This document shows, one piece after another, positions 2,857-33,221 of a stretch of DNA of 33,221 nt. The position numbers were made by a program, and so were the translations under genes. Each line of letters opens with the position of its first letter. Position 1 is the stretch's first letter. The notes beneath the pieces are model-generated. The model was not told the origin of the DNA. It did no database searches and worked only from the letters and a program-made list of their open reading frames with translations. Source of the stretch: Chrysochromulina tobinii (Eukaryota); assembly GCA_001275005.1 (NCBI GenBank), contig JWZX01002530.1:1-33221 (forward strand). The letters are read 5' to 3'.

Positions 2857-2892
<36 letters not shown>

Positions 2893-5800
2893 GGCGGGAG
2901 CTCACCGCGCGGCGAGAGGATGGCGCTGCCGCCACTGCCTGTCCCGCTGGCAGAGATGCACCCATCCCTGTGCCTTGATCCGAGCTTCTCTGACGCCGCA
3001 CTCGGAGCGTACGAACTGCTACTGCTCGGCTGCGGCTCGCTCGGCGCGGGCGTGCGCGTGAGCGAGGTGGTGCCCGGCGGTGCAGCGGACCGCGCAGGGC
3101 TCAAGGTGGGCGACGTGATGTTCACATGCAATGGTCAGCTATTGCTCGGCACGCGCATAGCCAGCACCGCGCTGCGGAGCGCCGCGGACGCACATTCACA
3201 GCGCGCGCTGATCACACTCCTCGATGGGAGGGAGTTCGTGCTCGCCGGCCGCAGCGACTATCCGCCCACCAAGGCGAGTGGTGGCAAGGGGGCGGTGCAG
3301 CTGCCATTTGGGCTGCTGTGCGAGGCGATCCCGCGTCCAGGCGAGATGCCGACTCCTCCATCAGTCGAGGCACTCGAGGCGATGCTCGCTGTGATCCGCG
3401 GTCGCCTGGGCATCTCGCTTCGACAGCACAAGTGGCTGCTGCCCACGCTGAGGCAGCCCCTCGCGTCGGACGTGGCACTCGCATCGCCGCCCGCGCCCGT
3501 GGCGCCCGCGTACCGAGCGCTGCTGCTGCTGCATGCGGCGCCGATCTCGGGCAACCACCCGCGCCCTCCCGAGCTCAAGAGTTTCGTCACGCGCCAGGTG
3601 GGCTTGCTGCGCAATGCTCTGAGCAAATGCGACGACACGAGCAGCGGCGGCGCAGCGGCGCTGCGGCGGCTCGAGGCGCAGGCGGGCCGGCTACTGACGC
3701 TCCGGTTCGCGCCCGAGGCAGGCGCTGACGCGGGCGCGTCCGAGGCGCGAGCGATGGTCGCCACGCTGCGCGAGATCGGCGTGATCAGTGGCGTCGGCGC
3801 CGGCGGCGTCGGCGGCGTCGGCGCCGGTGGCGCCGGTGGCGTCGGCACGCTCGTATCTGCTGAGCTCGGCGACGAGATTGAGGGCGGCAGTGCGGGTTCT
3901 CCTCATGGCGGCGCCGCTGGCGGGCTAGTAGCGCTCCTACCGCGCTGGCCTGATGCTGTCGGGTACCGTCTTTACTGCGCCCTGCTCGAGGCACTCTTCG
4001 AGGCCGATGAGCCCTCAGAGCTCGCGGCCGACGCAGAGGTGGTGCTTGCTTTGCTCAAGTGCACGTGGCAGCCTTGCGGCATCGACGAGACACGCCACCG
4101 CCTTGCGCTGCTCTCGGTGGCCTTTGAGCATTACCAGCAGGCGGGTGCGCCGCAGCTGCTGCCGCGCATCCAGCGGTACGTCGACGAGCTCCAGGCGGCT
4201 AGGGGCGGCGGCAGCGGCGGCGGCAGCGGCGGCGGCAGCGGCGGCGGCAGTGGCGGCGGCGGTGGTGGCGGTGGCGGCAGCGGTGGGGGATGGACGAGTA
4301 CGCGCACCTCGGAGGTGCTTGCGGGCATGGCAGGCTACCTGAGTGGCAAGCTGCGTGATTATCGTGGCAACTTTGGCTGTCACACGGAGGAGTTGCGAGC
4401 ATGCGTCACACTCTGGCGCGCATGCCTCGTCGGCCTGTCAGACAGCCACCAGGTGCGCAACGTCCTCGATGAGCAAGCTCGAGGGCTCATTGAGGCCTCG
4501 ATGCAGCGCCACGTGAAACGGCTGCGCCTCGCCGTCGCAGCCGACCGCCAGGCAGCGGCGGATCATCGGGAGAGCTTCGGTGGTTTCATGGACGACGAGG
4601 CGAGCGGGCCGGCAATGGGCGAGGAATTCGAAGGTGCCCTCTGTCAACTCGTGAGTACCCTCGCCGAGGAGGTCGAGGTCGAGGTGGAGTTCGCCTCGTG
4701 CTTTGACGACTGCGTGGTGCGCCGCCCTGCGGACGAGCACCGTGCCGGAGGCAGCACCGGCGGCGGCCAGGGTGGCGTGGCCAGGAGCTCGGTAGAAGTT
4801 GCGAGAGGCGCTGGTGGCGGCGGCGGAGGAGGCGGCGGAGGAGGACGCGGCAGCGGCGGCGGCGGCGGCGTCGGCGGTGCGCGCGCAGCGTCGCCTGCGC
4901 TCGCGCACGCGCTGCGTTGCCTCGAGTCGTCCATCGAGTCCGACCTTGAGCTCTGCCTCGCCGCCTTCACCACAATCTCCTCGGGCACGATGGCGGTGGT
5001 CGAATCGCTCACTGAGCTTCACAAAGCATTCAGCCGTGCGGGGGCGCTCGAGCCGCTGCAGCCGTTGCGGACGCTCTGCGTGCAGCTCAGTGACGGGTGG
5101 GTAGCCCAGTTACCTGCTCTGCTCCAGTCCACGCTGAGCCGCGCTCTCGAAGTTGAGACTTGGGCGGCCATCTCAGACGCTGCACTACGCACGGGCTGCG
5201 TGATCGACATCTTCACTCAGCTCGATCGGCTCTCGCAAGTGTACGTGGCATACTGCGTCAACTTGCCAGTGAGCCTGCCGTCGTACTGCTATCAAGACTT
5301 CGTCGAGGTCGTCGAGCTGCAGGTGATCAACCTGGCCAGTGCGCTCGCCGCCAGCGTTCCAGCGCTGCCCCCCTCCGTGCTCCAGCGCATCCGCCGGGGC
5401 TCCTCCTTCGTACGATCGGCAGCGTCCGGCGCCCAAGTCGGCGCCCAAGGCAGCGCCTCGAGCGAGTCGCCCTCGATCTCGCCGTTTCAGCTCGCTCACG
5501 AAGCTCGGGGTGGCGCCCGGGGCGGCGCCTCCGACAGCGGCGGTTGCGGCGGCGGCGGCGGGACGGCCAGCATCCCGGTGCGTCCCGTGGGCCGTACCAA
5601 GGAACTCGACGAGATGACGCTGCGTCAGCTCTGCCTGCGACTCAACAACTGCGAATGGGCAGCCGAGCAGCTACTAGCCCTCGCCTCGCGCCTTCGGGCT
5701 GGCGTGCCTGCACTGGGACGGCTGCCCGGGAGGGCCGTCGAGCAGTGCGAGCAGTCGTGCCGCGACCTCCTCTACTACATCGCTGCCAAGGTGGTGTACT

Positions 5801-12566: not shown

Positions 12567-14138
12567 CTACGGGCGGGCTGCTGGACCAGCTGGGCGGCAC
12601 CGCTGCGCCTCCTGCCACGTGCGGATCTGCCTACGCACAGTGTGATTGGGGAAGAGCATCTTGACCTCGAGCTCGGCGCCCGTCATCGGGCTGGTCGAGT
12701 GGCCGACGAGCCAGTCCTCGATCGCACGCCGCTCGTACATGTGGCCGTCCGCAGCCGAGACCGGGTCGATCATGAGGTTGTGCGTGATGGGGCAGATGAA
12801 GTCGTCGGGCGGCTCCTCCGCCGCTGCGGCCTCCGTTGCAGCGTGCGCCTTTGCTGCTGACGCATTAGCCTCTTGCTCCGCCTGATTGCGAGCGTGCTCT
12901 TCTGCCTCCGCCTGGGCGGCCTTGGCCTCCGCCTCCGCTCGTGCCGCGGCCCTCGCCTTTGCCTCAGCCTCAGCGGCGGTCATTGCCGTTGCCTCGGCCT
13001 GTACCTGCGCCTTCGTCTTGGCCCCCGCTACTGCCGCAGCTTTCACCACAGCGCTGGCGTGCTCCACGCTGGCGTTGGCTGACGCCTCTGTAGGAGCGCC
13101 AGCCTTCTTCTTGGCCTTGATCTTGCCCTTCTTGCTCCGCGCTTTCTCAGCCTCGCTCTCTTCTTCAGCCAGCAGCGCTGCCATTGCCGCATCCGCGCGC
13201 GCTGCCGCGGCCGCCAGCGCAGCAGCGTCCTCGACCTGAGCCGAAGCGTTCTCGGATGCACCTTTGCGCGCTTTGGTCACACGCGGCCGCTGCGCCTCGG
13301 CCTCGAGCTTTGGTCTGCCTTGCGTGACGTTGTGCATTCGAGCGAGGTAGCTCTGTGCGTCAGCATCTCCTTGCGCGGCCGCGAGGCCAAGCAGCCGCCG
13401 CGCCTCAACCGCATCCTTGGGTCCGCCACGCCCTTCGTAGAGCATGCGAGCGAGACCGCACTGCGCGTCAGCAACCCCCTGCGCGGCCGCGAGGCCATAC
13501 AGCCGCCGCGCCTCCACCTCATCCTTGGGTCCGCCACGCCCTTCGTAGAGCCCGTGAGCGAGGCAGCTCTGCGCACCAGCGTGCCCCTGCGCGGCCGCGA
13601 GGCCATACAGCCGCCGCGCCTCCACCTTGTCCTTAGGTCCGCCGAGTCCTAAGACGAGCATGCTAGCGAGGCGGCACTGCGCGTCAGCGAGCCCCTGCGC
13701 GGTTGCGAGGCCATACAGCCGCCGCGCCTCCGCATCATCCTTGGGTCCGCCACGCCCTTTGTAGAACATGTTAGCGAGGCGGCACTGCGCATCAGCGTGC
13801 CCCTGCGCGGCCGCGAGGCCAAGCAGCCGCCGCGCCTCCACTTCGTCCTTGGGTCCACCGAGCCCAGAGCCGAGCATGTCAGCGAGGCGGTACTGCGCAT
13901 CAGCGTGCCCCTGAGCGGCTGCGAGGCAAAACAGCCGCCGCGCCTCCACCTCGTCGTTGGGTCCGCCGTATCCTTTGTTGATTTGTTTGTAGAGCATGAA
14001 CGCGAGGGAGAACTGCGCATCAGCATGCCCTTGCGCGTCCGCGAGGCCAAACAGCCGCCTCGCCTCTGCCTCGTCCATCGGTCCGTCGTGCCTAGACACG
14101 AACAATCGCACTTTTTGAGATACAGAGATTGCATGCAT
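12567..14138 (-). CDS. SEL1-repeat protein with Ala-rich coiled coil and C-terminal U-box (E3 ubiquitin ligase)
   Basis: About 7 SEL1 repeats (36 aa/108 bp: EARRLxGLAAAQGHADAQxxLAxML..GxGGPKD); U-box PDDFICPITHNLMIDPVSAADGHMYERRAIEDWL...SPMTG...LFPNHTVR. Start at 14138 or 14078. Confidence 0.92.
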   Translation of the reverse strand: MHAISVSQKVRLFVSRHDGPMDEAEARRLFGLADAQGHADAQFSLAFMLYKQINKGYGGPNDEVEARRLFCLAAAQGHADAQYRLADMLGSGLGGPKDEVEARRLLGLAAAQGHADAQCRLANMFYKGRGGPKDDAEARRLYGLATAQGLADAQCRLASMLVLGLGGPKDKVEARRLYGLAAAQGHAGAQSCLAHGLYEGRGGPKDEVEARRLYGLAAAQGVADAQCGLARMLYEGRGGPKDAVEARRLLGLAAAQGDADAQSYLARMHNVTQGRPKLEAEAQRPRVTKARKGASENASAQVEDAAALAAAAARADAAMAALLAEEESEAEKARSKKGKIKAKKKAGAPTEASANASVEHASAVVKAAAVAGAKTKAQVQAEATAMTAAEAEAKARAAARAEAEAKAAQAEAEEHARNQAEQEANASAAKAHAATEAAAAEEPPDDFICPITHNLMIDPVSAADGHMYERRAIEDWLVGHSTSPMTGAELEVKMLFPNHTVRRQIRTWQEAQRCRPAGPAARP

Positions 14139-20296: not shown

Positions 20297-20524
20297 TCGA
20301 AAAAGCGCCACGCCGGGCGCTTTTCGGGCCGCAACAGGGCCCCCGACTGTGTCGGCAGTGTGCCGGGCTGCGGACTAGCGGCTACCGGGACAGATTTCTG
20401 TTCTTCACCGCTGAGTTGATTCGTGAGTTCATCTTTCGTCAATGATCGTCAGTCTCAGAGGACGCGTGCTCGAAACCATTCTCGGAATTATCCTAAAAGA
20501 ACGTCCGTCTTTATCGAGAGGCGA

Positions 20525-21663
20525 GCTCGAATCCAATCGCGGAACATCTGAACACAATCGCAGCTTCGCGCACTCATTCGCACGGCAAGCCAACATGCTC
20601 TCCTGCGTCCTCGCCGCCTCCCCCGCTCTGATGCTCGGCCCGGTGGCCGCGCCAGCCCTGCGCCACGCATCACCCACGATGCAGCAGACCTTCCAACGCG
20701 AGCAGGTCGGCTACGGGACCGCGACCTACACCGGCGGCGTCGTGCCCACGCGCATGGCGCCCGTCAAGGCCGACTCCACCATCCTCGTGCAGGGTGGCTC
20801 GCTGCGCACGTGGTCATACCGCTCGCCGTCCGTGGAGCAGGTGCAGGTCGTCCTCAGCACCGAGGGCCGCCCGCTCGACGCCGACATCGAGCTCTGGCAC
20901 GGCCCCGACAACACGCCCTGCAAGATGCGCGTGTACGTCGAGAACGGCCAGCTCCGCCCCTTCTCGGCGGTGATCGAGACGCCGCGCGGCCCGAACACCG
21001 TGGCCATCCGCAACATCGGCCAGATCGAGTTCCCCATCGCCGCCAACGTCGTCGCTGACCAGGTCGACAGCCCGTCCGCCGACTGCATTGCCGCATCGAC
21101 GACCATCCAGGGTGGCGCCCTGCGCACGTATCCCTTCGACCCGACCGTCGACAGCGTCCAGGTGCTGCTCAAGACCGACGGCCGCCCGCTCAACGCGCGC
21201 ATCGAGCTCCTCCAGGGCCCGAACAACAACAAGCAGGTCATCGAGCTCTACACTGAGGACGGCCTCGACCGGCCATTCTTCGCCATCCTCGAGACCCCGG
21301 GCTCGGGCAACGTCGTCCGCATCGTCAACACCGCGCCGATCGAGTTCCCCATGACCGCCGGCGTTGTACCGCACTCGATCAATACGGACATGTCCGCGGC
21401 CGACGTCGTCATCGGCGGCGACATTGGCCGCTAATGTGCAGGCCGCACGGCCGCGCCGCGCACAAGGATTGAGTCCCACACGCGCGCGCGACGATACCTT
21501 CAGATGTCTGGGCTGGCGGCCACGATCGGGATGGGGCGCGCACGCCGCGAAAGAGCATGAAGAGAGTTGCGAGCCGTGCTTCGCGGAGGAGGAGGAGGCC
21601 CGGGAGGAGAGGCCGGGCGTTCATCGTAGGAGCTGAGAGAGATGAGTCGGTCGTGCCCGTCCG
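20525..21663 (+). repeat. Left arm of a ~1.1-kb inverted duplication (gene plus UTRs)
   Basis: Aligns by eye to the reverse complement of 24980-26076, from the 5' flank GCTCGAAT(C/A)CAATCG...CACAATCGCAGCTTCGC to the 3' flank GTCGTGCCCGTCCG. Confidence 0.92.
20595..21434 (+). CDS. Uncharacterised algal protein, 279 aa, two internal repeats (QGGxLRT...GRPLxAxIELxxGPxN...ETP), probable plastid presequence; copy 1
   Basis: Strong GC3 codon bias; hydrophobic N-terminus then Ala/Pro/Arg/Ser segment ending ASPTM; two clearly homologous halves of about 100 aa. Confidence 0.9.
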   Translation: MLSCVLAASPALMLGPVAAPALRHASPTMQQTFQREQVGYGTATYTGGVVPTRMAPVKADSTILVQGGSLRTWSYRSPSVEQVQVVLSTEGRPLDADIELWHGPDNTPCKMRVYVENGQLRPFSAVIETPRGPNTVAIRNIGQIEFPIAANVVADQVDSPSADCIAASTTIQGGALRTYPFDPTVDSVQVLLKTDGRPLNARIELLQGPNNNKQVIELYTEDGLDRPFFAILETPGSGNVVRIVNTAPIEFPMTAGVVPHSINTDMSAADVVIGGDIGR

Positions 21664-22720: not shown

Positions 22721-24382
22721 TTAGCGGGCCCAGCTCGGCGCGTCGAGATTCGCGAGCCACGCGGCCTTGGCGCTCTCAGCACCCGCGACCGGCGCGCTGT
22801 TCGGCATGAAGGCTGGCGCATAATTGGACGGGAGGCTTCGGGTAGGCACGACACGGCCGGCCGGGGCCGGCGCGTTGCTCGACCCCCATGCTGGCGCGTC
22901 GAGCTTCGCAAGCCACGCGGCTTTGGCGGCAGCCTCGTTCGTCGAGGCGCAAGCGGGCACGGCGTACGCGGGAGCGAGCGCAACCGGCGCGGGCGCCGAG
23001 GCATGCATAGCACCGAAGAACGCGTCGCGCTCTGCAAGCCATGCGGCCTTGGCAAACGCCTCAGCCGTGGTGGCGGCAGCGAGGTCCAGTTTGGCGAGCC
23101 AGGCGGCCTTAGCAGCAGCCTCACGCGTGGCAGCGGTGTCAACGGGCGCGGCATTGTATGAGAACGTGGCATCGCTGACGGGCTCAGAGTAGAGTGCGGT
23201 GGGGGTTACACGACCCTGGCCCCAGGCAGGCGTGTCGAGCTTGGCAAGCCATGCGGCCTTGGCGGCAGCCTCGCCAGCAGCGCCAGTGGTGGCGGCAGCG
23301 CGGCCCCAGGCGGGCGTGTCGAGCTTGGCGAGCCAGTCGGCCTTGGCGGCAGCCTCGCTAGTTGCGGCGGCAGCGGCGTCGATCGTGGGGGTGGCAGCGC
23401 CTGACTCGGTGACGAACGCAACGGTCTTCGGGCCCCAGGTGGGCGCATCGAGCTTGGCAAGCCATGCGGCCTTGGCGGCAGCCTCGCCAGCAGCGCCAGT
23501 GGTGGCGGCAGCGCGGCCCCAGACAGGCGTGTCGAGCTTGGCGAGCCAGGCGGCCTTGGCGGCAGCCTCGCTAGTTGCGGCGGCGGTGGCGTCGATCGTG
23601 GGCGTGGCAGCGGCCGACTCAGTGATGAACGCAACGGTCTTCGGGCCCCAGGTGGGCGCATCGAGCTTGGCAAGCCATGCGGCCTTGGCGGCAGCCTCGT
23701 TCGTGGGGGTGTGGGCGGCAGCGCGGCCCCAGACAGGCGTGTCGAGCTTGGCGAGCCAGGCGGCCTTGGCGGCAGCCTCGCTCGATGCAGCCGGTCCAGC
23801 GTAGGCGGGGGCAGCCTCAACTAGAGCAGGCGCCGAGGCACCCCTGCCCCAGGCAGGCCCATCGAGCTTTGCGAGCCAGGCGGCCTTGGCGGTTGCCTCG
23901 TTCGTGGCGGCGGCAGCGCGGCCCCAGACAGGCGTGTCGAGCTTGGCGAGCCACGCGGCCTTGGCGGCGTCTTCGCTGGGAGCAGCAGCAATCGTAGCAG
24001 CCGCCGGGGCAGGGTTCATGAAGCCGGCCTTGGTGCCCCAGCTTGGCATATCGAGCTTTGAGAGCCAGGCAGCTTTGGCGCCCACGGTGTTCATGACTAT
24101 GTCGGGCGAAGACGCCTTGCCAACAATAGTGCCCGTTATGTAGGCGGACTGCAGAACATTGGGAAGGCGGCAGCAGAGAACGTGAGTCATGGATGGCAGT
24201 CGATGACCACTCTTTGAACCGTGCCGCGCGCGTGGTGTGCAGGGCGAGATCAAGGAAAGTGTCGGCCGTCAAATCCAGCACAGTGGTGCACGAGGCAGGG
24301 TGAGGTGGGGCTGCGGGAGGGCGAGCGGTCGCGCGCGTACCGAGAGCGCGACCGTCGAAGAGCAGACGAGGAGGTGAAGCAT
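22721..24382 (-). CDS. Ala-rich repeat protein with 13 AKAAWLAKLD(xPxWG) motifs and bipartite plastid-targeting-like presequence; exons 24382-24341 and 24148-22721 (489 aa)
   Basis: Phase-0 intron GTACGC...TTCTGCAG (24340-24149) joins MLHLLVCSSTVALS to SAYITGTIVGKASSPDIVM. Motif copies counted in the translation; a 213-bp (71 aa) two-motif higher-order repeat lies at about 23230-23780. Confidence 0.88.
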
Positions 24383-24979: not shown

Positions 24980-26076
24980 CGGACGGGCACGACGACTGAT
25001 CTCTCTCAGCTCCTTTGATGAACGCCCGGCCTCCTCCTCCTCCGCGGAGCACGGCTTTCACTTCTCTTTAGGCTCTTTCTCGTCGCGCGCGCCCCATCCC
25101 GATCGCGGCCGCCAGCCCAGACCTCTGAAGGAACTTGTCGCGTGTGCGGTGTGGGACACAATCCTTGTGCGCGGCCTGCACATTAGCGGCCAATGTCGCC
25201 GCCGATGACGACGTCGTCCGCGGACATGTCCGTGTTGATCGAGTGCGGGACAACGCCGGCGGTCATGGGGAACTCGATCGGCGCGGTGTTGACGATGCGG
25301 ACAACGTTGCCCGAGCCCGGGGTCTCGAGGATGGCGAAGAATGGCCGGTCGAGGCCGTCCTCTGTGTAGAGCTCGATGACCTGCTTGTTGTTGTTCGGGC
25401 CCTGGAGGAGCTCGATGCGCGCGTTGAGCGGGCGGCCGTCGGTCTTGAGCAGCACCTGCACGCTGTCGACGGTCGGGTCGAAGGGATACGTGCGCAGGGC
25501 GCCACCCTGGATGGTCGTCGAGGCGGCAATGCAGTCGGCGGACGGGCTGTCGACCTGGTCGGCGACGACGTTGGCGGCGATGGGGAACTCGATCTGACCG
25601 ATGTTGCGGATGGCCACGGTGTTCGGGCCGCGCGGCGTCTCGATCACCGCCGAGAAGGGGCGGAGCTGGCCGTTCTCGACGTACACGCGCATCTTGCAGG
25701 GCGTGTTGTCGGGGCCGTGCCAAAGCTCGATGTCGGCGTCGAGAGGGCGGCCCTCGGTGCTGAGGACGACCTGCACCTGCTCCACGGACGGCGAGCGGTA
25801 CGACCACGTGCGCAGCGAGCCACCCTGCACGAGGATGGTCGAGTCGGCCTTGACGGGCGCCTTGCGCGTGGGCACGACGCCGCCGGTGTAGGTCGCGGTG
25901 CCGTAGCCGACCTGCTCGCGCTGGAAGGTCTGCTGCATCACGGGCGATGCGTGGCGAAGGGCTGACGCGGCCACCGGGCCGAGCATAAGAGCGGGGGAGG
26001 CAGCGAGGACGCAGGAGAGCATGCTGCTGAGGCGAAGCTGCGATTGTGGTGCGATGTTCCACGATTGTATTCGAGC
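24980..26076 (-). repeat. Right arm of the ~1.1-kb inverted duplication
   Basis: Reverse-complement match to 20525-21663; CDS nearly identical, UTRs with more substitutions and indels. Confidence 0.92.
25183..26022 (-). CDS. Uncharacterised algal protein, 279 aa; copy 2 (inverted paralog of 20595-21434)
   Basis: Same length (840 nt); only 4 amino-acid differences seen (P/S and T/V in the presequence, M/K, A/D). Confidence 0.9.
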   Translation of the reverse strand: MLSCVLAASPALMLGPVAASALRHASPVMQQTFQREQVGYGTATYTGGVVPTRKAPVKADSTILVQGGSLRTWSYRSPSVEQVQVVLSTEGRPLDADIELWHGPDNTPCKMRVYVENGQLRPFSAVIETPRGPNTVAIRNIGQIEFPIAANVVADQVDSPSADCIAASTTIQGGALRTYPFDPTVDSVQVLLKTDGRPLNARIELLQGPNNNKQVIELYTEDGLDRPFFAILETPGSGNVVRIVNTAPIEFPMTAGVVPHSINTDMSADDVVIGGDIGR

Positions 26077-26706
26077 ACACATCTCCCGCTTCTCCGACTC
26101 TCTTTTTCGACGTGAGATTTTCGTCGAAAATTGAAAATCCGGTGTCGCCTAAAAACAAGCGGATGTGTTACCTGCTGACAAGCCTCTCCTTTACTGTACA
26201 AAACGTGATCGCCGTGAAGTTTTTTTGTTGGTGCAACGTGCATGTATCGGTATGGGCCCGGACACCCGATACAGCATCGAGCATGTACACGCGGCTTTCC
26301 GCCCCACGCACCCCCGTGAGCTTCTTCAGGGAAATAGGCCAATACGGCTGATATCTTATTTTGATTCGAATATAACTTTGATGGCCCGTCACGCACACCG
26401 CGCCCGAGAAGCAATCGACCTACCGCTAGCGCTACCCGCTGAGAACGGCCGCTCTGGTCTGGTGTCTGGTGAACTGTCCGCCGTCTCTCCCGCCCACAGC
26501 GCACACAGGAGCGGAAATACGACGGGACGTCCAAATGTTCTCCACACGAATGGGTGAGTGACACACCCCCAGCATGCATGCATGCGACGAGAGGGCAGAC
26601 GCATAAGCATGCCATGTGCCCATCTCCACATCTTCGTGCAACTGCGCGCGCACTGCCTCTGCGCACTGCCACTGCGTGCGCCATCCTCAACATCTGGACG
26701 CCTCTC

Positions 26707-28512
26707 TCAATCTTTGCCCCGGAGGCGCTTCCACAACCCTCGTTTCTTCTTCGTCTCTGTCGCCACTATGATCGCCGCCTTTGGCGCCGCCTCCGGCAGC
26801 GCCATCAACCGATCACTCTTGGCGAGAACCTTCTCCGCTCGCTCAATGACCGACCTCTCGTCTACCGAGAGCCCAGTCGCTTGTGCAAACTCGCTCGACG
26901 TCCATTGAGCTGGGCTCCATTTGACAGGCTCTGGCTTCGGCACAGGCTCTGGCTTCTCGTCCACTGCCAATCCCGGCGCGGCATCAAACTCCTTCTTCGC
27001 CCATGGCGCTTTGAACGGCTCTGGCTTCGGCGCACGCGTTACCTTCTCGTCCACTGCCAATCCCGGCGCGGCATCAAACTCCTTCTTCGCCCATGGCGCT
27101 TTGTAAGTCGCCTTGACGATCGGCTTAGCCGCTGGTACGTCCACTGGCTTGGCAGGCTTCGCCTTTCCTGTCGTGGGTGCCGTCACGGGCGCCGGGGCTG
27201 CCGAGGATGCCTCCGTCTCGTTGCCACCGAGCAGCACAACCGCCGCGCCAAGGGCGACTACAGATGGGATTGGGTTGAAACCGCCGCCACGTTTTTTCTC
27301 AGCGGTGGCCTTCGCCTTGGGTGCAGCCTTGGCCGGAGGGGCCTTCGCGGCGAGCCTCTTCGCTTTGATCGCGGCGGCCTTCTCCGCCTCCCGCTCCGCC
27401 TGCGCCGCCGCGCGCGCCGTCCGCTCTGCCTGCAGCTCCGCCACCCGAACTTTGTTGCGCTCCCGTGCGGCTTGGGCTTCATCGATCTTATTGCGAGCCG
27501 CTGCCAAAGGCTGCGCCGCCTTGGTCGCCTTCGGCGCTGCCGCCGCCTTTGGCGCCGCCGCCGCCTTCGGTGCCGCCGCCGCCTTTGGCGCCGCCGCCGC
27601 CTTTGGCGCTGCCGCCGCCTTTGGCGCCGCCGCCGCCTTTGGCGCCGCCGCCGCCTTTGGCGCCGCCGCCGCCTTTGGCACCGCCGCCGCCTTTGGCGCC
27701 GCCGCCGCCTTTGGCGCTGCCGCCGCCTTTGGCGCTGCCGCCGCCTTCGGCGCCGCCGCCGCCTTCGGCGCTGCCGCCGCCTTCGGTGCCGCCGCCGCCT
27801 TCGGCGCCGCCGCCGCCTTTGGCACCGCCTTCGGCGCTGCCGCCGCCTTCAACGCTTTACGGCGCGCCTCGGCCTCAAGCTTCGCTTGCTTCGCTTGCTT
27901 CGCGGCCGCCTCGCCCAGGGCCCTCTTATTGGCAGCCGCCGCATTGGCCGCTCTGGCCGCCTCATTCTCCATCGCCAACTTAGCGGCCTTGGCTGCCTCA
28001 CGCTGTGCGTCGGCTGCCCGCTTGTTCGCCAGCGCCTCGGCCTTTTGGCGCGCCGCCGTCACCTTCACCAAATCTCGTTGCGCCGTCGCACGTACCTTAG
28101 CTTCACGTTGCGCCGCCAATTCCTTCGCCTTCGCTTCCACCTTGGCCAACGCCTCCGCCTTGGCGATGGCCTGGGCCTCAGCCTTGGCGGCCTTGGCCTT
28201 GGCCTGGGCCTCGGCCTTGGCGGCGATTGCCTCGGCCTTGGCTTCCGCTTCAATTGCCTGTAACCTCGCTGTAACGGCACGTTCTTTCTCTTCTGCGAGC
28301 GCCAAGCGCTCCTTTGCACTCAACTCCGGAGACGAGATGGCAAGCAAGGTCACGGCCGGCAACTGCGGTAGTGGTGTCGCCGCGATCGCTGCCTGCTGAA
28401 CCACAGGGAACGGAGCCGTCGAAAGGAGCCCCGCGATAACGATTGAGCACAGCGAAGCGGAAGCGCGTGCGCCAGCGTCATTCCCTCTGAATGGTCTGAG
28501 CGGTGCCCTCAT
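26707..28512 (-). CDS. Ala/Lys-rich protein: hydrophobic targeting segment, coiled coil, (KAAAAP)n, single TM helix, repeated C-terminal motifs
   Basis: 601-aa ORF. LCSIVIAGLLSTAP...AAIAA (AxA-type) near the N-terminus; TM-like IPSVVALGAAVVLLGG; KAPWAKKEFDAAPGLAVDEK twice plus a variant KWSPAQWTSSEFAQATGLSVDE. Confidence 0.8.
   Translation of the reverse strand: MRAPLRPFRGNDAGARASASLCSIVIAGLLSTAPFPVVQQAAIAATPLPQLPAVTLLAISSPELSAKERLALAEEKERAVTARLQAIEAEAKAEAIAAKAEAQAKAKAAKAEAQAIAKAEALAKVEAKAKELAAQREAKVRATAQRDLVKVTAARQKAEALANKRAADAQREAAKAAKLAMENEAARAANAAAANKRALGEAAAKQAKQAKLEAEARRKALKAAAAPKAVPKAAAAPKAAAAPKAAAAPKAAAAPKAAAAPKAAAAPKAAAAPKAAAVPKAAAAPKAAAAPKAAAAPKAAAAPKAAAAPKAAAAPKAAAAPKAAAAPKATKAAQPLAAARNKIDEAQAARERNKVRVAELQAERTARAAAQAEREAEKAAAIKAKRLAAKAPPAKAAPKAKATAEKKRGGGFNPIPSVVALGAAVVLLGGNETEASSAAPAPVTAPTTGKAKPAKPVDVPAAKPIVKATYKAPWAKKEFDAAPGLAVDEKVTRAPKPEPFKAPWAKKEFDAAPGLAVDEKPEPVPKPEPVKWSPAQWTSSEFAQATGLSVDERSVIERAEKVLAKSDRLMALPEAAPKAAIIVATETKKKRGLWKRLRGKD
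27529..27850 (-). repeat. 18-bp coding minisatellite encoding about 18 KAAAAP units
   Basis: Period-18 repeat (plus strand CGCCGCCGCCTTTGGCGC-type) with synonymous variation between units. Confidence 0.95.
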
Positions 28513-29944: not shown

Positions 29945-32900
29945 ATGCTGCTGCTCTTGCCCTCTTTGGCGAGTATTACGTTCAACATCGGTGCCACGCA
30001 TCGACCATCGGCGTTGCCGCGTGTGGGTCCGCCTGTGCGACTCAGCGTCACGGCCGCGACACCGCTCGGTGAGGGCGAATGGGAGGTCATCAAGGAGGGT
30101 GGAGCTTTCTATGGCCGCGCGTCGCAGTCAAAGCTGCGTGTCAACGTGGCTGGCAAGGAGATGACATTCGGCACAGGCTTGATCGCACGCCAGGCCAATG
30201 CAGCCGTCACCGTCGAGCAGGGCCAAACGCACGTCTTCTCGGCCGCGTGCTTCGAGCGCAAGACGGACTTTGAGGCGATCGACTTCACGCCGCTCAAGGT
30301 GGACTACTTTGAGCGGCAGTCTGCGGCGGGACGGACGCTCGGTGGGTATATCAAGCGTGATGGCAAGCCGTCCAACCACGAGACGCTCACTTCACGCCTG
30401 ATCGACCGACCAATCCGTCCGCTCATCGCCAAGGGCTGGTCGCTCGAGACGCAGCTGACAGCGTACGTCCTCGCGTATGATGGCACGCACATGCCCGACG
30501 TGCTCGCGATCCTGGCGTCCTCGGCGGCGCTCGCTCTCTCCGAAGTCCCCTTCCCCAAACCAGTCGCTGCCGTACGCGTCGGCCTCATCGAAGAGCGCCG
30601 TCCTGAGCGCCCGGCCCCAGCGGCGGCGACGGACGACGCGGTGAGCGACGGCGCGGCGAGCGACGACGCCGGCGCCGGCGTCGTCGCCGGTGCCGCCGAG
30701 GAGGATGACTTTCTGGACGAGCTGATCCTCGACGAGCAGGTGACCGAGATCTCCGAGATCTCCGAGATCTCCGTCATCAGCTCTGATTGCCTCCCTCATC
30801 AGCTCTGATTGCCTCCCTCATCAGCTCTGATTGCCTCCCTCATCAACGCAGGTGACCTCCGAGACCTTCGAGGAGGCGACCGACGACAGCAGCGGCGGGG
30901 GCGGCAGCAGCAGCGCTCAAGACGGCGCCCAAGCGTCGTACCGGTTGGTAATCAACCCGACGCGCGAGGAGATGGCGATCTCGAAGCTCAATCTCGTGAT
31001 CGCGGGCACCTCCGACGCGGTGCTGATGGTCGAGGGCTTCTGCGACTTTTTGCCCGAGGAGACGGTCCTCGAGGCGATGGAGCTTGGCCTCAAAAGCGTA
31101 CGCACCCTCGCGCCCTGCCCAGCCGCGCGTCGCATGCAAGTGCTCACTACGGCGCCACGTCTCTTCCCCACAGGTACGCACTCTCGCATTGGCCATCGGC
31201 GAGTGGGCGGCCGCGTGCGGCTCGCCCAAGTTCGAAGCCGGCGTGCGCGCCGAGCCAGAGGGGCTCGATGCCATGGTAGAGGCGATCATCGGCGACGAGA
31301 TCGAGGGCACGCTATGCGGCCCTACCAAGGTACGTTGATGGCCACTGATGACCTGGGTTGCATGCAAGCGCTCACCACAGCGCGCTCTGCGCCCCTAATT
31401 AGGACGACCGCGAGAATTGGGAAGGGCTCTGTAATCGGGCGGTCGAGGCTCTGTGCTCCGATGCGGCGGTGGCGTCGCGCGGCGGCCTCGTCTTCGAGAA
31501 GATCGATGTCAAGTCGTCGTTCAAGCGGCTCGCGTACGCGAGGCGCCCGGGATGACGAATGATTGCGAGTGATTGCGAATGATTGCGAATAATTGCGACT
31601 GATTGCGTACGCGAGGCGCCCGGATAACGACTGATTGCGAATGATGGCCTCGGATTGCCGCTGATGATGGCCTCGGATTGCCGCTGATGATGGCCTCGGA
31701 TTGCGGCTGATGATGGCCTCGGATTGCGGCTGATGATGGCATCGGATGGGCTTCCTCTTCAGGTGTGCTGGCATCTGATGACCTTTGGATGACCTTTGAT
31801 GAGCTCTGATTGCCTCCCTCATCAGGTGTGAGACGCTACGTCGCATGGGCGTGCGCGGCGTGCGCCAGGACGGACGACGGACGACCGAGGTGCGACCACT
31901 GATGACGACCACTGATTACCACTGATTACCTCTGATTACCACTGATTGCTACGACCGAGGTCGATCGAGGTACGACCGAGATCGACGTCCGAGATCGACG
32001 TCCAGAGCGCGCAGCATGCAAGTGCTCACCACGGCGCCGGTCCTTTCCACAGGTACGCCCGATCGACATTCGGCTGGCGCCGCTGCCGCCACAAGTTCAT
32101 GGCTCCGTCCTGTTCACACGTGGCGAGACGCAGTCGCTCGCAACGACGGTCCTCGGCGATGACTCGATGGTGTCGCGGTACGCTGATTGCCACTGATTAG
32201 CTACTGATGGCGTCTGATGACCTATGATGGCCTCTGACGACGCCCGATGACGCCCGATGACGCCCAATGACCTTCCTCATCAGGTACGAGAACCTCGATG
32301 GCGAGCAGGGGAAGCGCTTCTACCTGCAGTACATCTTCCCGCCCTTTTCGGTGGGCGAGGTGGGGCGCAACGGCGCGCCGGGACGACGCGAGGTCGGCCA
32401 CGGCAACCTTGCCGAGCAGGCGAGCTGATGACCTCTGATTGGCCATGATGACCACTGATTGCCTATGAGTGGCCCTGATGGGAAGTTATGGCGAGCTAAC
32501 GCGTCGTCGTGGGCATGCTACCTTTTCCGAGCAGGCCCTCGCGCCCGCGATGACCAATGATGACCCCTGATGAGCACTGATTGCCCCCCTCATCAGGCCC
32601 TCGCGCCCGCGATGCCAACCTCGAGTGAGTTCCCTGATGACCTCTGATGAGCACTGATTGCCCCCCTCATCAGGCCCTCGCGCCCGCGATGCCAACCTCG
32701 AGTGAGTTCCCGTACGTGGTGCGCGTCGAGAGCCTGATCACCGAGTCGTGTGGCTCGTCCTCCATGGCGTCCGTCTGTGGCGGCGCGCTCTCCATGATGG
32801 CGGCAGGCGTCCCGCTCAAGCGCGTCGTCGCCGGAGTTGCGATGGGGCTGCTCCTCGACGAGAGTGGGGGCGGGGGAGAGCCGATCATCCTCACAGGCGA

Positions 32901-33221
32901 GCTGATGACCTCTGATTGCCCATGATGACCACTGATTGCACCCCGATGGGCGCCAAGGGAGAGCCGATCATCCTCACAGGTTCGTTGATTGCCACTGATG
33001 ACCTGCCTTGCATGCAAGCGCTCACCACAGCGCTATCGGCTCGACCGACCCGATCATCCCCACAGATATCCTCGGCTCTGAAGATGCACTGGGCACGATG
33101 GATTTCAAGGTGCGCTGCCGACGCCTCACCACACCCCCACTCCCCCCGACGCGTCACCACACCCCACTCCCCCCGACGCGTCACCCGTAGTCGTCACCCG
33201 TAGTCTTCACCCGTAGTCTTC
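29945..33221 (+). CDS. pnp: Polyribonucleotide nucleotidyltransferase (PNPase), probably plastid; partial. Exons 29945-30739, 30852-31097, 31174-31329, 31403-31533, 31826-31889, 32053-32177, 32284-32419, 32674-32896, 33066-33109
   Basis: The spliced frame gives [55 protein letters not shown]...[27 protein letters not shown]...[24 protein letters not shown] and [17 protein letters not shown]. All intron phases are consistent. Confidence 0.95.
30740..33221 (+). other. Set of repeat-rich spliceosomal introns in PNPase: 30740-30851, 31098-31173, 31330-31402, 31534-31825, 31890-32052, 32178-32283, 32420-32673 (GC-AG), 32897-33065 (GC-AG), and one starting at 33110
   Basis: Boundaries inferred from continuity of conserved PNPase sequence. 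Shared modules CTGATTGCC(T/C)CCCTCATCAG, CTGATGACC and GCATGCAAG(T/C)GCTCAC recur between introns. Confidence 0.85.
31641..31750 (+). repeat. 23-bp intronic minisatellite (TGATGATGGCCTCGGATTGC(C/G)GC)n
   Basis: About 4-5 tandem units in PNPase intron 4, preceded by 10-bp TGATTGCGA(A/G/C) repeats at about 31560-31606. Confidence 0.9.

Follow-up and report, generated by a model that had tools for sequence, protein, structure and literature searches.

Introns in a haptophyte PNPase gene that combine recurring splice-signal cassettes with long copies of the adjoining exon edge

The PNPase gene and its introns

Contig JWZX01002530.1 of Chrysochromulina tobinii (assembly GCA_001275005.1; 33,221 nt, analyzed over its full length and called the window here) ends inside a gene for PNPase whose introns are the subject of this report. 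The coding region (29945..33109, forward strand) consists of nine exons with 640 codons, and the gene runs on beyond the window end. Eight introns are complete and a ninth is truncated by the window end (Table 1). Removal of introns 1 to 8 leaves a 640-codon frame with zero stops, which upholds the count of at least nine introns made in an earlier, model-generated interpretation of the letters (the sequence-only reading). The count is high, since C. tobin genes are given a mean of one intron each (PMC4580454). The exon-1 protein is PNPase, with an RNase PH domain, and the spliced product is identical to protein P0170, which spans the junctions of introns 5 to 9, at 191 of the 191 residues of their overlap. 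The 90% cluster of the exon-1 protein includes the EukProt Chrysochromulina parva model P0129. P0129 and the spliced product of the window agree at 94%, the gaps falling at places where P0129 splices otherwise; the remaining top matches are haptophyte-like. By these matches, the host appears to be a freshwater haptophyte resembling C. parva. A quick tree of PNPase places P0003 as sister (support 100) and P0004-P0007 next (support 99). Set against the RNA-supported structure, P0129 (the public C. parva PNPase model) has extra residues at introns 1 and 5 and missing or wrong residues at introns 7 and 8, and these are likely model errors.

Read evidence comes from three RNA runs and one DNA run, among the matches listed. 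RNA contigs join exons directly across introns 2, 3, 5, 6 and 7, and one RNA record has the exact spacing expected from splicing of intron 4. At intron 8, pieces from three RNA runs depart from the DNA at 32891, as expected for a GC donor at 32897. The junction check that the sequence-only reading had called for is thus available for introns 2 to 7, bridged by RNA contigs, and for the donor side of intron 8. By the reading frame alone, intron 1 would also be spliced; no splicing of it was seen in the RNA contigs examined. Two RNA contigs, X11 and X12, start inside intron 1 (at 30816) while the downstream introns are spliced, through retention or assembly clipping. Such starts are best read as some unspliced RNA or DNA, and not as general retention of intron 1; contigs drop variants.

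Table 1. Introns of the PNPase gene in the window and their components
Feature	Position	Strand	Components	Junction evidence
Intron 1	30740..30851	+	copy of downstream exon start, 9-mer array, 22-mer array of cassette B end
Intron 2	31098..31173	+	downstream-exon copy giving GT, followed by the core of cassette C and a pyrimidine tail that includes AG	RNA junction
Intron 3	31330..31402	+	cassette E (31330-31383; donor and branch-point-like motif), degenerate upstream exon-end copy giving AG	RNA junction
Intron 4	31534..31825	+	compound; 10- and 23-mer arrays, cassette B (31788-31825) at end
Intron 5	31890..32052	+	decamer array, upstream-exon copy, downstream-exon copy, C core at 32014	RNA junction
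Intron 6	32178..32283	+	decamer arrays, B-type end	RNA junction
Intron 7	32420..32673	+	cassette F (32420-32462; GC donor), degenerate upstream-exon copy to 32534, two units of downstream-exon copy plus cassette B	RNA junction
Intron 8 (32897-33065), unit 8a	32897..32979	+	cassette F (GC donor), perfect 23-nt upstream exon-end copy
Intron 8, unit 8b	32980..33065	+	cassette E, degenerate upstream exon-end copy (17/19) giving AG
Intron 9 (partial)	33110..33221	+	arrays of 27-28-mers and 13-mers; visible part free of all four cassettes

Each intron is a mosaic of at least one cassette, a site-specific exon copy and local tandem arrays, and not a copy of a whole-intron family. Cassette F (43 nt, GC donor) opens introns 7 and 8 in copies identical at 42 of 43 positions, and cassette E (54 nt; a GT donor and decamers, then the C core) opens intron 3 and unit 8b, with 50/54 identities between 31330-31383 and 32980-33033. 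The C core, GCATGCAAG(T/C)GCTCAC, is found at 31132, 31360, 32014 and 33010 only, window-wide at up to 2 mismatches (chance mean 0.05 matches; 0 of 100 shuffles reach 4). The GC donors of introns 7 and 8 with about 43 nt in common, the resemblance of intron 3 to a part of intron 8 and the fourfold motif had all been noticed in the sequence-only reading, and all of them hold. The CTCAC of the core sits 25-29 nt before the AG in introns 2, 3 and 5, and we take it to be branch-point-like by its resemblance to the general consensus rather than from lariat data. Cassette B (38 nt, an acceptor end) closes introns 4 and 7 (35/38 identical) and is arrayed in intron 1. Its acceptor motif has six matches in the window, every one within PNPase introns (chance 0.00), and C and B have zero copies on either strand of the remaining 29.7 kb. 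Of the ends supposed to be common to introns 1, 4, 6 and 7, those of the last three do agree, terminating in CCTCATCAG; intron 1 has CCTCATCAG internally only, its end being ...CAACGCAG. The shared stretches amount to 24-54 nt of introns 73-292 nt long and the opposite end is site-specific, so the similarity does not reach both boundaries. Intron 7 holds a 77-nt unit repeated in tandem (76/77 identical). Array lengths vary between strains, and intron 1 measures 112, 137 and 146 nt in the window, L024 and L025, respectively.

An absence of inverted repeats had been claimed as well, and it applies to the ends of cassettes E, F and C, where the terminal match is just 2 nt; cassette B does contain an inverted repeat of 7-8 bp that runs up to the AG of the cassette (3/2000 shuffles for the intron 7 copy, 19/2000 for the intron 4 copy). 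At 32644-32673 this repeat, of 8 bp, ends at the acceptor AG. At 33004-33019 the C core lies on a palindrome of 10-12 nt, and its reverse strand resembles a donor site. A fold-back origin of cassettes B and C is possible. An Rfam search with the cassettes returned weak C/D-box-like matches only, far below gathering scores, and the window cassette copies have no poly(A) tail.

Most of the PNPase introns hold a 14-38 nt copy of the adjoining exon edge, and this copy supplies the other splice site. The null tests the same intron against other coding positions, in an anchored ungapped test. The downstream copy in intron 7 is perfect (38/38; 0 of 204 nulls as good), as is the copy in unit 8a of intron 8 (23/23; 0/100). 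Intron 2 has 13/14 (0/96), intron 5 has both an upstream copy of 18/23 (0/99) and a downstream copy of 9/10 (2/94), and intron 1 has 6/6 in the window (1/97). Longer copies occur in other strains, with 28/31 for intron 2 in L023-L025 and 20/21 and 19/21 for intron 1 in L024 and L025, and in P0003 the intron 2 copy is about 18 codons long. There are two arrangements. In intron 3, units 8a and 8b and the first part of intron 7, the cassette comes first and an upstream-exon copy comes last, giving the AG; in introns 1 and 2 and the later parts of introns 5 and 7, a downstream-exon copy comes first, giving the donor, and the cassette comes last. With lengths of 14, 23, 23 and 38 nt, the copies in the window show no fixed duplication length. 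The end of the neighboring exon recurs as a direct repeat at the far side of the intron above background, where background means shuffled pairing and not old introns of the same genome. These exon-edge duplications, absent from the sequence-only reading, are the main mechanistic clue.

Recurrence of the cassettes and distribution of the introns

Single-copy pieces of the DNA run have depths of 34-53, against 941-21,977 for the cassette bins, and 1,714 DNA contigs matched the 3.5 kb region; the high cassette depth reflects many copies and is not itself a copy number. A profile of the E/C read-through peptide finds 151 proteins at an expectation value of up to 10. Three of the 120 listed are PNPase, and 115 of the 117 other listed matches carry the E/C peptide, alongside many unrelated Pfam domains (two are C. 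parva models). By DNA depth and read-through proteins together, the E/C cassette recurs in many unrelated genes. Cassette F is of low depth, the bin with the F of intron 7 reaching just 322, and F may have been copied within PNPase. The finding accounts for the cassette read-through peptides in the Chrysochromulina gene models P0339 and P0350.

Many near-identical short copies in unrelated genes are also what a classical non-autonomous DNA-transposon introner (a miniature inverted-repeat transposable element, MITE) of the Micromonas or Aureococcus type would leave, and the 7-8 bp inverted repeat in cassette B could be counted on its side. We consider such an element extremely improbable here: the terminal inverted match is at most 2 nt for E, F and C, the pair in B is internal only, the duplications are long and variable rather than 3-9 bp, and the cassette ends vary. 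The surmise in the sequence-only reading that these introns spread by a route different from that of introners with terminal inverted repeats (TIRs) is borne out, there being no cassette-bounding inverted repeat and no fixed duplication length.

Removal of 2 PNPase occurrences, 40 with short flanks, 41 with a second cassette in the flank and 20 redundant ones reduced the 151 cassette occurrences to 48 single-cassette sites. In a frame-aware likelihood test of DNA shared by both flanks, with 1,066 shuffled pairs as the null, 32 of the 48 lie above the null 95th percentile, 21 above the 99th and 17 above every null value; some of the misses look like assembly chimeras across the repeat. An in-frame repeated peptide of 5-18 matching residues is found at 14/61 sites, against 16/3615 null pairs. 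Some in-frame repeats are tandem units across an acceptor (P0375, P0319); P0375 has no match in PDB at an expectation value of 1e-20. At P0315 the cassette stands between two identical 8-residue peptides, and P0426 and P0428 show one versus two cassette-plus-copy units segregating at one locus. A second gene in L023 has a 12/15 exon copy, decamers and a B end (at the DNA level, by eye). In the PNPase gene of L027, another haptophyte, the single 99-nt intron (2619-2717) consists of a 34/34 downstream-exon copy followed by an unrelated array, purely of 11-mers, with AG at its end. The start of the L027 contig holds a different 11-mer array. Cassette starts (n = 145) comprise 43 with the full donor, 25 cut back, 53 with the core only, 23 undetermined and 1 other.

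Presence of the introns was compared across seven lineages (L027; P0154; P0015-P0019 with P0261; P0026-P0028; P0171-P0172; P0173; P0005), each with a sign of genomic origin: available DNA sequence, reading into an intron at another place, or a contig of more than 15 kb. Of the 37 rows examined, possibly RNA-derived ones were left uncounted, and the calls are protein-based except for L027, which is DNA. Introns 3 to 5 are absent in 7/7 of these other haptophyte lineages, and introns 2, 7 and 8 in 6/6 that cover them. Intron 6 is absent in 6/7, with P0005 departing from the protein at that position, and intron 9 is present in 2/6, where the open reading frames (ORFs) P0026-P0028 and P0173 depart from the protein; judged from these sequences, the positions of introns 6 and 9 are probably common to other haptophytes. 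Intron 1 is absent in the sister ORF P0003, which reads through the intron 1 linker and into introns 2 to 4. The comparison of orthologs that the sequence-only reading proposed thus comes out as absence elsewhere for introns 2 to 5, 7 and 8, and not for introns 6 and 9. Most intron positions of this one gene are lineage-specific, each with a readable scar of its formation.

Old introns colonized by minisatellites and homogenized by gene conversion, with no intron gain, would suit the positions of introns 6 and 9 and the decamer arrays that fill introns 4 to 6, and introner surveys do drop such repeat-rich families as possible microsatellite expansion (PMC9860276). For the gene as a whole this is a very unlikely account, given the lineages without introns 2 to 5, 7 and 8 and the absence of intron 1 in P0003, and it leaves the site-specific exon copies unexplained. 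It is largely refuted for six positions, and introns 6 and 9 may still be describable by it.

Unit 8a is polymorphic and a later addition to intron 8, since all eight ORFs of the P0298 cluster pass from the exon straight to 8b without it (three of the eight also show the end of intron 7); its perfect exon copy, against 17/19 for 8b, fits this order. By this comparison, 8a would be the youngest unit.

A group of close haptophyte PNPases (P0014-P0019, P0022, P0174, P0175 and P0261) reads into two repeat-rich introns with exon-like edges, which only some of the records contain (P0018 one, P0016 the other). Either polymorphism of the introns or incomplete splicing in RNA contigs could be the cause.

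Possible routes of intron gain

The lineage-specific PNPase introns, with their recurring cassettes and long exon duplications, are a variant of known intron-gain routes. The sequence-only reading had proposed an introner-like family. This stands in that E/C recurs in many unrelated genes and most positions are absent in other haptophytes, and it fails in that whole introns are not family copies. Introners are repeated short sequences that create spliced introns at new sites, one splice site being carried and the other co-opted from a duplication (PMC9860276, PMC12130899); the PNPase introns likewise co-opt one splice site from a duplicated exon. Introner target-site duplications (TSDs) measure 3-9 bp (PMC9860276, PMC12130899), whereas the duplications here are of about 14-54 nt and variable, the similarity covers only part of each intron, and the introns are compound. 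An introner in a marine Chrysochromulina metagenome-assembled genome (MAG) has no TIR and a 4 bp TSD, carries its 5' site and co-opts its 3' site (PMC9860276); the likeness to these marine families is one of description and not of compared sequences. New introns of Daphnia have 4-12 bp exon repeats ascribed to staggered breaks, with filler mostly of unknown source (PMC4202315; review PMC3443670), but here the repeats are longer and the filler is a few recurring splice-signal cassettes. When an exon segment with AGGT is duplicated in tandem in the genome, splice sites also result and splicing restores the message (PMC3443670), as it does here, although here a foreign cassette between the copies brings the branch point and one site. 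Because these introns lack the MITE features looked for and end-to-end similarity, we do not file them with introners or break-repair introns, though they work like both. Read and colleagues reportedly described in 2013 tandem repeats of 10-11 bp, and frequent GC donors, in the introns of Emiliania huxleyi, another case of short 10-11 nt arrays in haptophyte introns. To our knowledge those arrays have been linked neither to exon duplications nor to intron gain.

Most recent intron gain is ascribed to transposons in current surveys, which report none for the nearest species with a sequenced genome. The 2025 dataset gives zero introner families for C. tobinii (PMC12130899), and the 2022 genome list is the one place in the accessible text of its paper where C. 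parva and C. tobinii are named (PMC9860276). To be retained by the introner pipeline, a family must be similar as far as the intron ends and must not be rich in repeats (PMC9860276). In the literature searched, neither these cassettes nor long duplications of exon sequence within introns of haptophytes were found described; the search did not extend to subscription papers, supplements on bioRxiv, files 13-14 of PMC12130899 or the GitHub introner consensus sequences.

We favor template-switch repair at staggered breaks, an explanation that we think about equally likely to be right or wrong, because of the variable lengths, the variable cassette starts, the several unrelated cassettes and the likely nearby donor for unit 8a. 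While a staggered break is being repaired, synthesis would switch template to another intron and copy a cassette there, and some 15-55 bases of flanking sequence would be copied again, leaving the cassette between two flank copies. A cassette bringing donor and branch point would take its AG from the end of the upstream-exon duplicate (intron 3, units 8a and 8b), and one bringing branch point and acceptor would take its GT from the start of the downstream-exon duplicate (introns 1 and 2). Splicing would remove the cassette and exactly one copy, so that the protein is unchanged, and selection would retain the events in which cassette and copy yield donor, branch point and acceptor. An insertion at an existing junction should survive easily, which would lead to compound introns, and slippage between direct repeats would multiply the units. 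The donor may be a neighboring intron, such as the F of intron 7 for unit 8a, copied by an enzyme whose action we infer. The F of 8a is identical at 42/43 positions to the F lying 477 nt upstream, whose bin has a depth of 322 against the 34-53 of single-copy pieces. Exon-copy lengths vary widely, unlike a transposase TSD. If such repair-driven copying is true, it would join the Daphnia break-repair model to the introner model and name the source of the filler.

Several results weigh against this explanation. The copy in intron 3 (17/23) passes a local-alignment test and fails the anchored ungapped one, and introns 4 (5 nt) and 6 have no significant exon copy. No empty-site allele of a whole intron was found as DNA in close strains, L021-L025 keeping the same introns wherever covered. 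The flank-sharing test is failed by 16/48 sites, and its unweighted peptide-compatibility version is weak, with a high null (11/55 above the null 99th percentile). The query selects copies that keep the core, and metagenome ORFs may be chimeric across the repeat. Apparently full-length copies with both splice sites exist (P0304, P0326 and P0342), duplications across an existing acceptor (the 77-nt tandem of intron 7, P0375, P0319) need no outside donor, and variable 5' ends and tandem tails are equally compatible with retroposition.

Retroposition would make the cassettes tiny RNAs resembling short interspersed elements, inserted through target-primed reverse transcription by an enzyme of the non-LTR (non-long-terminal-repeat) or Penelope-like kind acting in trans, with the exon copy as TSD. 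The variable duplication length, the cut-back 5' starts against a steady core, the tandem-repeat tails and the lack of TIRs all suit it, and about 5% of classified introners stem from non-LTR elements (PMC12130899). We nevertheless judge it unlikely. The duplications reach 38-54 nt, where L1 and RTE TSDs are mostly 7-18 bp (PMC6007223). The window copies have no poly(A), no Rfam family is reached at gathering score, and none of the 33 window ORFs scanned is a reverse transcriptase or transposase. Several unrelated cassettes have the same anatomy, and the steady core is partly a query effect.

A short complete introner (donor, branch point and acceptor in about 70 nt) might instead have inserted without a long duplication, the exon echoes being made later, as segments spanning splice sites were duplicated in tandem and sequence was deleted or introns were partly lost. 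Apparently complete copies do exist, acceptor-spanning duplications are real (the 77-nt tandem of intron 7, P0375), array lengths vary by strain, and TIR-less introners are reported in marine Chrysochromulina MAGs (PMC9860276). The probability of this course of events is low in our estimate, as in unit 8a a single step brings in both a different cassette and a perfect exon copy, and clean sites (P0315, L027) would each require two precise events.

Template-switch repair can also be put in a more general form, one that we offer tentatively and with more doubt than confidence. Haptophytes may run a transposon-free intron factory, in which repair copies cassettes from existing, often neighboring, introns between long exon duplications, so that intron-bearing genes would seed introns in themselves. 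Each lineage would have its own 10-11 nt repeat, and introner screens would miss the process by requiring end-to-end similarity and discarding repeat-rich families.

Further loci and neighboring genes

Of the 80 loci from a metagenome scan, 5 are near-identical strains, 2 (L026 and L027) are further loci of haptophyte-like character, one is L028 and 72 are weaker matches (mostly uninspected). The PNPase locus of L026, whose source may be RNA or DNA, is intronless. L028 (8800-13500) is from a different, intron-rich eukaryote; in its PNPase introns the flanking exon is often found again in degenerate form together with the splice junction, as local duplications across junctions. Scans of viral contigs gave 10, 0 and 0 pattern matches, and these were set aside, since 9/10 have unrelated flanks and the other contig, L005, looks like host DNA. 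At 2890-3060, its host-like end, this viral-collection contig has two near-identical 35-nt copies enclosing a 10-mer array, with a C core and an acceptor after them. Ten prokaryote genome matches were likewise set aside, both of the 2 inspected being chance matches in bacterial coding sequence.

The genes neighboring PNPase are ordinary host genes, with long single ORFs that contain whole Pfam domains. The contrast drawn in the sequence-only reading with mostly intronless neighbors therefore stands as far as ORFs, rather than RNA, can tell. Coding tandem repeats are found at 13334-13968 (108 nt, in a Sel1 repeat gene), 23218-23782 (213 nt) and 27526-27829 (18 nt), the ORFs of the latter two having no Pfam match. 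Two diatom-type pyrenoid shell (PyShell) genes, at 20427-21434 (forward strand) and 25183-26148 (reverse strand), form an inverted pair 94% identical over about 930 nt, and L021 diverges from the window upstream of this repeat.

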